Assembly: GCF_003334355.1 (NCBI RefSeq)
Contig: NZ_QOWP01000019.1
Reading direction: 5' to 3' (one strand)
From: Escherichia coli
Lineage (GTDB): Bacteria > Pseudomonadota > Gammaproteobacteria > Enterobacterales > Enterobacteriaceae
Length of the DNA stretch: 64,000 bases
Position numbers and translations under genes: made by a program
In this document: positions 58,393 to 60,129 of the stretch, piece after piece
Numbering within the stretch: the first letter of the stretch is position 1
How the letters are laid out: every line of letters starts with the position of its first letter
The notes under the pieces: generated by a model
The model's database searches: none
The model's input: only the letters and a program-made list of their open reading frames with translations
What the model was told of the DNA's origin: nothing

Positions 58393-58716
58393 CTACTGAC
58401 GATTCGGGCAATGCAGGCGGGTCATCTCGCCTTCTCTGCCCCCGGGTGAAACTAGCGTAACGCTGATGCTGACACATCCCGCCTGCGATGTCTGCATTCG
58501 GTTGACCTGCCAGTTGGCAGGTGGCGAAATCGCGCGCAGTTGCGTTTGCTGCCAACCATGCCGCCAGAGCTGTTGGTACTGGTTTCTGCTGGCGAGACTG
58601 TTCATTAATGTTCGCTGGATACCCGATAACGCAGTGACAATCATCACCATCAGCACCATCGCAACCATTACCTCCGGCAGGCTAAAGCCTTGTTGATTCT
58701 TCAGGGAAGCTGACAT
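58393..58716 (-). CDS. ppdC: Prepilin-type (pseudopilin-like) protein
   Basis: ORF 58393..58740; 107 aa from [27 protein letters not shown] (prepilin motif G-FSLPE plus hydrophobic helix). Confidence 0.88.
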
Positions 58717-59108
58717 AATGCCCCCTCTTTCAGCGGACAAAAATCGCTCCAGCCGCGTGGCGAAAAAACAATTTTTCCATCAATGACTTCGCCTGTTCGC
58801 CACAACGAAACGCCTTCATAACCGGCAATCAATAAGGCTTCATTATCTGCCAGTAAACGCAAACAAACCTGGGCATCGGTTCCAGCGTACTGCGAGCACT
58901 GAACTGCTGGCTGCGTCTGCCAGGAGTGCATTTTTCCCCACGCCAGCGCCGACTGAACGATGGCCTGGCGGCGCAATGACTGACTTTCCATGCTCACGCG
59001 AGAGGCAAAACTGCGATCCTGCTGACTCATTCCTTGCAATAGCAAGCTACCCAAAACCAGCAGCATCAGGACCAGAGCCAGTGACGAAACACCTTTTTCG
59101 CGGTTCAC
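58701..59108 (-). CDS. ygdB: Pilin-like membrane protein, function unknown
   Basis: 135-aa [27 protein letters not shown]; overlaps both neighbours. Confidence 0.85.
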
Positions 59109-59668
59109 AGGTTGAATCCTGTCACGCTATAGCTGGCATCCACCACGGTTTGCGGTTCAGACTTACTGGCAGCACGCATATTAACCGTCAACACCGGCGA
59201 GAAGCCGCTGACATCCTGACGTACGACCTGAAAAGTGTCGATAATGATGGCATCCGGATTAGTGACTTTATCCCAGCCCTTACCTTCACAGGATGTCGCA
59301 CCGCGTAGCGTTTCCAGCACATGCTCCTTCAGACGAAATCCAATCTGGTCGGACTCTTTTACCGGTTCGCGATCCCAGATACCGTTACTGTTCGCATCCC
59401 ACTGCACAATGATACAGTCACCCTGTCCGACAATTTCCAGCCCTTCGCCGGTACAGCTGCCATGACAATAACCCGCCCTCTGGAGATGCTTCGCGACGGT
59501 AAATACCCGCAGCCAGATTTCATCTTCCAGCGCCAGCTTACGGGTGCCCGTTAAACTTTCACGCTGTAACGCAGGCAGAAAGCGTGCCGCTCCCAGCAAC
59601 AATACGCTACTGATCGCCATAGCAATCAACACTTCCAGCAGAGAAAAACCTTGCTCTTTTACAGGCAT
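59105..59668 (-). CDS. ppdB: Prepilin-type protein
   Basis: ORF 59105..59908; 187 aa from [30 protein letters not shown] (prepilin motif G-FSLLE). Confidence 0.88.
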
Positions 59669-60129
59669 CCTTCTGTTTCTCCTTGCTGACAAAGCCGGAG
59701 TCTTCCCCACGGCGAAACCACCAGCCACCACTCGCCCGTTGAGTTTTTGAAGCGAATATGCCCGGCCCATGCGGTATTGCGCAGGCCAAAGAAAGCAAGC
59801 GAAGGTGTCAGGTCGCTCATTTCGACTTCGGGCCAGCGTGGCACAAAGACCAATGGTGAACTGCCATGACAGGTATTCGCCCCAGCAACGGAACTCACAA
59901 GGCACCATAACGTCCCCTCTCTGATAACACTGATACTGTGGTCGCGGTTATGCCAGTTGGCATCTTCACGTAAATAGAGCAAATAGTCCCGCGCCTGGCT
60001 GGCGGTTTGCCAAAGCCGTTGCGACTGCTGCCAGTATTGCCAGCCATAGAGTCCACTTGCGCTTAGCATGACCAGAATCAGCATCGCGACCAGCGTTTCA
60101 ATCAGCGTATAACCACGTTGTGTTTTCAT
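59659..60129 (-). CDS. ppdA: Prepilin-type protein
   Basis: 156-aa [33 protein letters not shown] (prepilin motif G-YTLIE). Confidence 0.9.

Follow-up and report, generated by a model that had tools for sequence, protein, structure and literature searches.

The four genes ppdA, ppdB, ygdB and ppdC, which lie between thyA and recC in the 64 kb window (the whole stretch of E. coli DNA that was analysed), very probably encode the core set of four minor pilins for the chromosomal type IVa pilus with PpdD as its major subunit, a pilus known in EHEC as the "haemorrhagic coli pilus". The cluster itself is already known: it belongs to the E. coli core genome and is an operon that has been named, annotated and studied experimentally. 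An earlier note on this DNA had regarded both its assembly partner and its function as unknown, a view that has to be given up: the literature assigns the proteins to the PpdD pilus as its minor pilins, the genes are Sxy-induced, and the partner genes are found at other loci. The other parts of the PpdD pilus are encoded elsewhere on the chromosome by ppdD-hofBC, hofMNOPQ and gspO, and the plasmid used for assembly of PpdD pili in E. coli carries ppdAB-ygdB-ppdC together with hofBC, hofMNOPQ and gspO, the latter as the peptidase (bioRxiv 10.1101/856302). In addition, a pulHIJK mutant can assemble PulG with PpdAB-YgdB-PpdC as the priming set (Cisneros 2012, cited in PMC5131608 and PMC4471445). 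Since the partners that seem to be missing have their genes at other loci, the ppd cluster is not a pointer to a new system. The only item at this locus that may be new is the set of TGCAAC elements in the ppdA promoter.

Organization of the locus

The coordinates of the genes and of the features around them are collected in Table 1. All four genes are read from the minus strand, and consecutive genes overlap by 10 nt (ppdA/ppdB), 4 nt (ppdB/ygdB) and 16 nt (ygdB/ppdC), the very values claimed beforehand and exact in the ORF coordinates. The distance between ppdC and recC, which had been put at 13 bp, is actually 12 nt from the ppdC stop codon (TAG, 58395-58393) to the recC ATG at 58380, 13 being the difference between the coordinates. 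For ppdB, a Shine-Dalgarno sequence of its own (AAGGAG) was found within ppdA, and a Shine-Dalgarno sequence is absent upstream of the ppdA start codon. A non-exhaustive scan of the minus strand from 58380 to 58700, which also missed the thyA terminator, found no terminator-like site.

On the upstream side, thyA ends in an intrinsic terminator whose RNA fold has a free energy of -17.9 kcal/mol and a z-score of -5.64, and none of 200 shuffled sequences was as stable. The 12-species alignment showed that this hairpin is kept in other genera with compensatory changes. The terminator separates the transcription of thyA from that of the ppd operon. In line with the claim that no major pilin, ATPase or secretin gene is nearby, none was apparent in the rest of the 64 kb window among the ORFs of at least 200 aa and the flanking recBCD, ptrA, thyA and lgt genes.

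Table 1. Coordinates of the ppd genes and of the neighbouring sequence features in the window
Feature	Position	Strand	Description	Basis
ppdA	59659-60129	-	ATG start, 156 aa	ORF and translation
ppdB	59105-59668	-	ATG start, 187 aa	ORF and translation
ygdB	58701-59108	-	GTG start, 135 aa, DUF2509	ORF and translation
ppdC	58393-58716	-	ATG start, 107 aa, smallest of the four	ORF and translation
ppdC-recC spacer	58381-58392	-	12 nt, holds the recC Shine-Dalgarno sequence AGGAG (58390-58386)	
Intrinsic terminator of thyA	60265-60292	-	CCGACGC-tagtgt-GCGTCGG followed by T8	
Candidate CRP-S-type site of the ppdA promoter	60230-60251	-	Core TTCGA-gacgcc-TTCCC at 60248-60233	
Direct repeat	60210-60225	-	TGCAAC-gtcc-TGCAAC, copies placed 23 and 33 nt downstream from T4 of the core of the CRP-S-type site	
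TGCAAC copies	60225-60220 and 60215-60210	-		

Prepilin signals, protein families and predicted folds

The ppd gene names record "prepilin peptidase dependent", and the N-termini read MKTQRG/YTLIE in PpdA, MPVKEQG/FSLLE in PpdB and MNREKG/VSSLA in YgdB, with FSLPE as the mature start of PpdC. The Pfam N_methyl model (PF07963) matched PpdA, PpdB and PpdC with E-values of 5e-7, 1e-8 and 2e-7, and the corresponding TIGR02532 scores were 24.3, 29.5 and 26.3 bits, respectively, in comparison to a cutoff of 16.3. The prepilin motif of these three proteins exceeds chance and is a canonical class III signal (Gly-1, Phe/Tyr+1, Glu+5). YgdB matched neither TIGR02532 nor PF07963 and carries Ala at position +5, without Glu5; it keeps the Gly before the hydrophobic helix, and this Gly is at least 90% conserved among 77 family members. 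The absence of Glu5 is a known property of the subunit in the GspK/PilX position. The prepilin hallmark that the earlier note had attributed to all four proteins is thus confirmed by the N-methylation models for PpdA, PpdB and PpdC, but not for YgdB.

At the family level, the NCBIfam equivalogs PRK10506, PRK10557, PRK11521 and PRK10332 were all far above cutoff, with 249.5 bits for PpdA (PRK10506, cutoff 158), 326 bits for PpdB (PRK10557) and 215.7 bits for PpdC (PRK10332), which also has a Pfam family of its own (T2SSppdC, PF12528). The proposed HMM comparison with GspH/I/J/K and PilV/W/X gave a divided answer: the N-methylation models were passed by three of the proteins as described above, but none of the four passed any of the Pfam or NCBIfam models for GspH/I/J/K or PilV/W/X, and Pfam gave no GspH/I/J/K match at all for them. 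PpdA reached 18.4 bits on TIGR01708 (gspH), where the cutoff is 80, in an alignment limited to residues 4-72, and PpdB reached 19.8 bits on TIGR01711 (gspJ), where the cutoff is 64.85; both alignments are confined to the N-terminal helix.

The AF2 model of PpdA (pLDDT 86.2) consists of a helix at residues 9-60 and a beta domain of two sheets. Its top seven Foldseek matches, with a probability of 1.00 and TM values of 0.50-0.63 (TMt 0.54-0.63), comprised EpsH (2qv8, 4dq9), XcpU(GspH) in 9a1f and FimU (4ipu), and all matches below these had a probability of 0.21 or less. By its predicted structure, PpdA belongs to the GspH/FimU/FimT fold class, though it is not a GspH equivalog. The YgdB model (pLDDT 94.6) has a helix at residues 6-60 and five strands, and its structural neighbours were a T4P minor pilin as the top match and also GspK/GspI, so that the model places YgdB as the pilin-fold member of the set in the GspK/PilX position, without Glu5. 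For PpdB, a profile of 13 orthologues matched T. thermophilus TTHA1219 with an E-value of 1e-4 over residues 4-150 (147 residues), a protein that is structurally nearest to XcpW/EpsJ/GspJ (PMC5131608, Table 4), and through this profile match PpdB appears to be GspJ/PilW-like. The pilin matches of the PpdC profile in the PDB were confined to the N-terminal helix, and single-sequence and profile searches of the PDB sequences with PpdA, YgdB and PpdC returned just N-terminal-helix matches or noise. A GspI/PilV-like role may be assigned to PpdC, the grounds being its size (107 aa), its position and elimination. In general, the HMM matches, the models of PpdA and YgdB and the PpdB-TTHA1219 profile agree in bearing out the supposed resemblance to a four-member minor (pseudo)pilin set, and the four proteins are pilin-fold subunits, PpdA and YgdB by model.

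Upstream region and candidate regulatory elements

The operon belongs to the regulon of Sxy and cAMP-CRP (CRP-S) and shows almost no expression otherwise; it is reported to be Sxy-regulated, with ppdA as its most strongly induced gene, in PMC12616744, which cites Sinha 2009 and Jaskolska & Gerdes 2015. The centre of the candidate CRP-S-type site lies 111-112 nt upstream of the ppdA ATG, and its core agrees at 8 of 10 positions with the E. coli CRP-S motif TGCGA-N6-TTCCA, which is non-palindromic (PMC6728893). The site closely resembles the predicted CRP-S site of ppdD (TTCTTCGTAACGCCT versus TTCTTCGAGACGCCT), and the ppdD promoter fragment was shifted by CRP in EMSA (PMC1635313). In the alignment of 12 Enterobacteriaceae, the pattern T[TG]CG[AG]-N6-TTCC was retained in most species. 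Judged from the sequence, the candidate would function as the CRP-S site of ppdA.

Within the intergenic region, the TGCAAC repeat downstream of this core holds the most strongly conserved non-coding columns, with T96, G97, A99, T106, G107, A109 and A110 invariant in the 12-species alignment, and TGCAA-N5-TGCAA occurs a single time in the window. With the centre of the CRP-S site placed at -61.5, the promoter-proximal copy would fall on the -35 position. Based on these patterns, the ppdA promoter might carry TGCAA(C) as a second, undescribed cis-element besides the CRP-S site, a suggestion which we regard as speculative and, on balance, unlikely. If functional, it could be, for example, a contact for Sxy or for the RNA polymerase alpha-CTD, or an unusual -35 element, and it would define a sub-class of Sxy-dependent promoters and bear on how Sxy acts at CRP-S sites. 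We know of no other motif that has been reported for Sxy action at these sites.

The TGCAA pentamer also recurs at matching offsets, 22-23 and 32-33 nt past the CRP-S core, in the promoters of hofM, ppdD, yhgH(comF) and smf(dprA), and is absent from those of sxy, ybaV, yifB and ycaI. Several other readings of the spacer were tried and rejected. With up to 2 mismatches allowed, the palindromic CRP-S pattern TGCGA-N6-TCGCA had no match in the thyA-ppdA spacer, and its window-wide counts were below chance, a failure which is resolved by the non-palindromic nature of the E. coli motif (PMC6728893). The CRP-like readings TTCCC-N6-TTGCA and TGCAA-N6-GCAAC are without the key G5/G7, and a CRP dimer would need the TGCA cores to be 2 bp further apart, while the sigma-54 reading of TTGCAAC-N4-TGCAA is without GG at -24 and has a spacing that is one base short. 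A sigma-70 consensus scan of the minus strand, which also missed the obvious thyA terminator, found no promoter.

Proposed role of the four proteins

In the mechanism we propose, a prepilin peptidase encoded elsewhere (GspO or PppA) would cleave and N-methylate the subunits, and the processed PpdA, PpdB, YgdB and PpdC would build a staggered complex in the inner membrane, with YgdB as its cap and PpdA as the adaptor to PpdD. This complex would start the polymerisation of PpdD by the HofB ATPase, the HofC platform and the HofMNOP alignment complex, with passage through the HofQ secretin, and would finish at the tip of the pilus. The position beside recC would be ancestral synteny which possibly permits read-through into recC, the machinery being independent of it.

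The tip complex probably binds DNA as well, because the GRxR motif with which FimT binds DNA is also kept at the C-terminus of PpdA (PMC8897410). In the alignment of 21 Enterobacteriaceae sequences, G142, R143 and R145 of PpdA are invariant, with G142 R143 L144 R145 forming the GRxR; the protein also has four conserved Cys residues and two predicted disulfides. H. influenzae comNOPQ, likewise located beside recC, are regarded as the orthologues of the ppd genes (PMC1635313, PMC12616744). DNA binding has also been proposed for ComN, the Pasteurellaceae orthologue of PpdA, and DNA binding by the tip complex would be in line with the requirement for comN and comNOPQ in the DNA uptake of H. influenzae. 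In Sxy-induced E. coli, PpdD is made and natural transformation has never been detected (PMC3330819).

Conservation and alternative interpretations

Decay of the locus, named beforehand as the refuting outcome, was not borne out. The locus is present in all complete E. coli genomes (5426/5426) with 95-100% identity, the four genes are intact, equal in length and without internal stops in the three divergent strains O157:H7, Nissle and EC03, and the gene order, all four ORFs and the overlaps are kept in 11 other Enterobacteriaceae, the ORFs and overlaps also in Frischella. The dN/dS values of the four genes, 0.10-0.30, are far under 1, which indicates purifying selection, and the upstream regulatory blocks are conserved. 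It is thus extremely improbable that the four genes are a decaying remnant, silent and on the way to pseudogenes, of a pilus or secretion system that has been lost, even though PpdD pilin was made by 0 of 72 ECOR strains under ordinary laboratory conditions (PMC3330819), no partner genes lie in the window, the ribosome-binding site at ppdA is poor, and evolution is fast, with 45-58% identity at the Enterobacter level in comparison to 92-95% for thyA and 77-81% for recC. The set is also Sxy-inducible and functional in fibre priming according to published work (PMC12616744, PMC5131608, PMC4471445). A functional set could in turn serve a type II secretion (Gsp) system as spare minor pseudopilins and not be made up of pilus components, which we consider very unlikely. 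Such an assignment would fit with the ability of the set to replace PulHIJK in the T2SS, as described in PMC5131608 and PMC4471445, with the "T2SSppdC" name of the PpdC family and with the best structural matches being T2SS proteins, EpsH/XcpU for PpdA and GspK/GspI for YgdB. However, the T4P protein FimU fits PpdA equally well, YgdB has a T4P minor pilin as its top structural match, the scores fall far short of the GspH and GspJ equivalog cutoffs, the candidate CRP-S site and TGCAAC element are common to the pilus genes ppdD and hofM, and the H. influenzae orthologues are needed for DNA uptake, which is a T4P function. The E. coli gsp operon, moreover, encodes its own GspH-K.

Within the assignment to the PpdD pilus, the packing on recC may itself be functional, in that co-transcription would let Sxy induction lift RecBCD together with the DNA-uptake machinery; we find this tentative idea rather doubtful. 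The 12-nt gap, the lack of a detectable terminator and the recC Shine-Dalgarno sequence directly after the ppdC stop are consistent with it, and the adjacency and orientation are kept in Enterobacteriaceae and Pasteurellaceae (PMC1635313, PMC12616744). However, the four-gene cassette of Frischella (Orbaceae) has a convergent DEAD-box helicase gene as its neighbour in place of recC, so that adjacency to recC is not required, and recC expression would be needed while the ppd promoter is silent, which would imply an internal promoter.

Comparison with known systems

The GspH-I-J-K proteins of the T2SS (PulHIJK, EpsHIJK, XcpUVWX) are the nearest solved folds for PpdA and YgdB, PpdB is linked to GspJ via TTHA1219, and PulHIJK is interchangeable with the ppd set in priming PulG assembly (PMC5131608 and PMC4471445). 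The ppd set differs from the T2SS in lying outside any gsp operon, in falling below the GspH and GspJ cutoffs and in its Sxy/CRP-S regulation, and YgdB differs from GspK in being without the large alpha-domain insertion, with 135 aa in comparison to 259-280 in the solved GspK/XcpX chains. FimT, a DNA-binding minor pilin of the GspH/FimT family known from L. pneumophila and A. baylyi, shares with PpdA the fold class by model, the C-terminal GRxR and, in the region of the beta5-beta6 loop, an Arg-Asn. The C-terminus of PpdA is stapled, with two predicted disulfides, while the FimT tail is flexible, and PpdA is encoded at the head of the core set and is not an additional paralogue of FimU.

Among the type IVa pili, FimU-PilV-PilW-PilX of P. 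aeruginosa and PilH-I-J-K of Neisseria are likewise sets of four co-transcribed prepilin-type subunits, one of them without Glu5, and they are proposed to prime pilus assembly and to occupy the tip, as for the ppd set; the FimU crystal structure (P. aeruginosa) and the PpdA model superpose with TM values of 0.53-0.63. In contrast to these core sets, neither a pilY1/pilC adhesin gene nor pilE comes after the ppd cluster, the gene order is H-J-K-I-like and not U-V-W-X, YgdB and PpdC are very small at 135 and 107 aa, and the families are separate at the sequence level.

For comNOPQ, the contig scan seeded by PpdA patterns returned Enterobacteriaceae and unrelated pilins and reached no Pasteurellaceae, and the link therefore rests on the published work and synteny rather than on an alignment made here. 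H. influenzae comNOPQ (HI0938-HI0941) comprises four pilin-like genes of similar size, with the same order and orientation upstream of recC as in the ppd operon. Both operons are Sxy/CRP-S regulated with the first gene most strongly induced, and ComN and PpdA each have a FimT/GspH-like fold, that of PpdA by model (PMC1635313, PMC12616744).

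Gene organization and prepilin-type signals

The four genes lie in the segment ptsP-lgt-thyA-ppdA-ppdB-ygdB-ppdC-recC, which occupies 55-64 kb of the window with every gene on the minus strand. The interval from the end of recC to the start of thyA (58300-60330) is 100% identical to that of E. coli strain Ecol_AZ147, and was found at 95-100% identity in every one of the 5426 complete genomes of E. coli. The successive overlaps of 10, 4 and 16 nt agreed with the earlier note, which had also described ppdC as packed against recC; the packing was confirmed, while the 13 bp it gave is a coordinate difference and the spacer between the ppdC stop and the recC ATG is 12 nt, with the recC Shine-Dalgarno sequence AGGAG inside it. 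The remaining entries of the table, CsrB, GcvB, ES036/CssrF and tRNA-Met (Rfam, ARAGORN), belong to the ordinary gene content of E. coli and have no connection with the ppd operon.

Coordinates of the ppd operon, its upstream elements and other features in the window
Feature	Position	Strand	Details
ppdA	59659-60129	minus	156 aa, start ATG
ppdB	59105-59668	minus	187 aa, start ATG
ygdB	58701-59108	minus	135 aa, start GTG
ppdC	58393-58716	minus	107 aa, start ATG
thyA intrinsic terminator	60292-60265	minus	fold -17.9 kcal/mol, z -5.6
putative CRP-S site	60248-60233		TTCGA-gacgcc-TTCCC
direct repeat	60225-60210	minus	TGCAAC-gtcc-TGCAAC
conserved hexamer	60141-60136		CATACT
CsrB	20328-20687	minus
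GcvB	38868-39073	plus
ES036/CssrF sRNA	42089-42131	minus
tRNA-Met(CAT)	43559-43635	plus

The N-termini were prepilin-like as had been described, namely MKTQRG/YTLIE, MPVKEQG/FSLLE and MNREKG/VSSLA, with FSLPE as the mature start of PpdC. PpdA, PpdB and PpdC passed TIGR02532, the curated N-methylation domain model, scoring 24-30 bits where the cutoff is 16.3, and matched Pfam N_methyl with E values of 1e-8 to 5e-7, and all four proteins matched their own NCBIfam equivalogs (PRK10506, PRK10557, PRK11521 and PRK10332) far above cutoff. YgdB showed no match to the N-methylation models; its position +5 is Ala, not Glu, and it is assigned to DUF2509, a small family of 152 clusters (50% identity; 1.84 billion proteins searched) found in Enterobacteriaceae, Erwiniaceae (Pantoea) and Orbaceae (Frischella), in which the Gly preceding the hydrophobic helix shows a conservation of at least 90% among 77 diverse members. 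A few database entries join DUF2509, N_methyl and T2SSppdC as YgdB-PpdC fusions, or join PpdA and PpdC domains (P0008, P0018, P0035 and P0039 of about 228-237 aa, and P0182 of 218 aa); they are rare relative to the intact forms, and their probable origin is a frameshift, a deletion or an assembly error in a single assembly, at a junction where the genes overlap.

Relationship to minor pseudopilins

Since the GspH and GspJ sequence models matched the ppd proteins only in the N-terminal helix, with scores far under cutoff, and Pfam reported no GspH/I/J/K domain among the four proteins, the ppd proteins fall by sequence outside those families. Structure and profile matches nevertheless support a likeness to the minor pseudopilin set for three of the four proteins, and make it plausible for the fourth. 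The AlphaFold2 model of PpdA (21-sequence alignment, pLDDT 86.2) has a helix at residues 9-60 followed by two sheets, and its only confident Foldseek matches were EpsH, XcpU/GspH and FimU (probability 1.00, TM 0.50-0.63). The PpdB profile (13 sequences) matched T. thermophilus TTHA1219 over about 147 residues with an E value of 1e-4, and the nearest structures to TTHA1219 are XcpW, EpsJ and GspJ (PMC5131608). In the profile search the likeness of PpdC to pilins was confined to the N-terminal helix, and its size, together with elimination, suggests a GspI/PilV-like role.

Maintenance of the cluster

A decaying remnant, the alternative raised in the earlier note, does not fit the intact genes or the selection acting on them. 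The lengths of the four genes are unchanged in O157:H7, Nissle 1917 and EC03, where none has an internal stop, and the order lgt-thyA-ppdA-ppdB-ygdB-ppdC-recC was retained with intact reading frames and the same overlaps at 11 loci in E. albertii, Citrobacter, Pseudescherichia, Superficieibacter and Enterobacter. For the ppd genes, dN/dS was 0.10-0.30 among E. coli strains and 0.10-0.19 in comparisons with E. albertii and Citrobacter; thyA gave 0.00-0.02 and recC 0.03-0.04. The four genes are thus under purifying selection, with the relaxation that is common in pilins exposed at the surface. Protein identity to Enterobacter-level relatives was 45-58% for the ppd genes in comparison to 92-95% for thyA and 77-81% for recC, and dS of ygdB among E. 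coli strains was high (0.11-0.14); diversifying pressure or recombination at the locus may lie behind both.

A cassette of the same four genes, whose products of 160, 185, 156 and 107 aa match N_methyl, PpdB (PF27121), DUF2509 and T2SSppdC, was present in Frischella (Orbaceae), on two Logan contigs (L028, 4990-6797, and L029) of an AT-rich gammaproteobacterium whose YgdB homologue cluster includes Frischella. Upstream of it lie rmuC and a gene of the tRNA-synt_2 family (PF00152), and on its downstream side a convergent gene for a DEAD-box helicase; neither thyA nor recC flanks it. The conserved unit is thus the cassette, for which adjacency to recC is not obligatory.

Promoter region and start of ppdA

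In the thyA terminator a GC-rich core stem of 7 bp, extended to 11 pairs in the predicted fold, precedes T8. A consensus scan of 58200-60500 missed this terminator, so negatives of that scan cannot be read as absence. Because this terminator is strong, the ppd genes need a promoter of their own in the approximately 135 nt (60264-60130) that are left of the thyA-ppdA spacer, whose full length is 184 nt. The search for a palindromic CRP-S (Sxy-dependent CRP) site in the spacer found none; the E. coli motif is non-palindromic, TGCGA-N6-TTCCA (PMC6728893), and the sequence at 60248-60233 agrees with it at 8 of 10 positions. We take this sequence to be the CRP-S site of ppdA. The putative site closely resembles that predicted at the ppdD promoter (TTCTTCGTAACGCCT and TTCTTCGAGACGCCT), a fragment of which is shifted by CRP in EMSA (PMC1635313), and the pattern T[TG]CG[AG]-N6-TTCC was preserved upstream of ppdA in most of 12 Enterobacteriaceae.

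Upstream of ppdA, non-coding conservation was strongest in the columns of the direct repeat, whose two TGCAAC copies lie downstream of the CRP-S core, at 23 and 33 nt from its T4, and are invariant in the 12 Enterobacteriaceae. Among Sxy-regulon promoters of MG1655, the offsets of TGCAA from the CRP-S core were +23 and +33 for ppdA, +22 and +32 for hofM (L025), +33 for ppdD (L024), +22 for yhgH/comF (L036) and +32 for smf/dprA (L034), and no copy stood at these offsets for sxy, ybaV, yifB and ycaI. TGCAA at these offsets ranked top in an unbiased scan of all 5-mers and offset sets with 4 promoters (5 with the tied hofM site), and only 1 of 300 shuffles gave 4, although the sample is small and the hofM and smf sites were chosen by score. 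If the CRP-S centre lies at -61.5, as proposed for a class I-like arrangement (PMC6728893), the +33 copy falls at the -35 position; for the +23 copy no role suggests itself. TGCAA(C) may serve as a -35-like element, or be contacted by Sxy or alpha-CTD; no -10 or -35 hexamers could be fixed for ppdA from sequence.

Clear Shine-Dalgarno sequences precede ppdB, ppdC and recC, and none was recognizable in the 22 nt upstream of the ppdA ATG (60130-60151, minus strand; CTCCTCGCTCCATACTGCCGGC), where the conserved hexamer stops 6 nt short of the start. Translation of the first gene is thus either poor or of an unusual kind. The missing Shine-Dalgarno sequence fits the published construct in which the ppdA ribosome-binding site was replaced to improve translation (10.1101/856302).

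Function and comparison with known systems

The minor-pilin-like reading in the earlier note is right, as were its observations, but not its statement that assembly partner and function are unknown, since there is a literature on the minor pilins of the PpdD pilus, whose partner genes lie at other chromosomal loci. The feature is a known core-genome operon of E. coli, already annotated and studied, and is not new. The thyA-recC interval was reportedly sequenced in 1986, and Whitchurch and Mattick are said to have named the ppd genes in 1994. According to PMC12616744, which cites Sinha 2009 and Jaskolska & Gerdes 2015, the E. coli operon is under Sxy regulation, and ppdA shows the strongest induction.

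Pilin folds, class III signals, priming in a heterologous system and Sxy control come from the present analysis or the cited papers. In the mechanism we propose, prepilin peptidase would process the four subunits, which may then form a staggered inner-membrane complex with YgdB, lacking Glu5, as cap and PpdA as adaptor to PpdD; this complex would start PpdD polymerization by HofB, HofC and HofMNOP through HofQ, and would remain at the pilus tip.

By analogy with ComN, DNA binding by the E. coli PpdA has been hypothesized in PMC12616744, a paper in which we found no mention of the GRxR motif. The arginines of the C-terminal GRxR motif of FimT bind DNA (PMC8897410), and G142-R143-x-R145 of PpdA matches this motif; G142-R143-L144-R145, near the PpdA C-terminus (about 59695-59706, minus strand), is invariant in 21 Enterobacteriaceae sequences. 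Counting against a role in DNA uptake, Sxy-induced E. coli makes processed PpdD and transformation has never been seen (PMC3330819). Cameron and Redfield had pointed out that in both Enterobacteriaceae and Pasteurellaceae recC adjoins four "prepilin peptidase dependent" genes of similar size, and they treated the E. coli ppd genes as orthologues of H. influenzae pulG-HI0941, now comNOPQ (PMC1635313).
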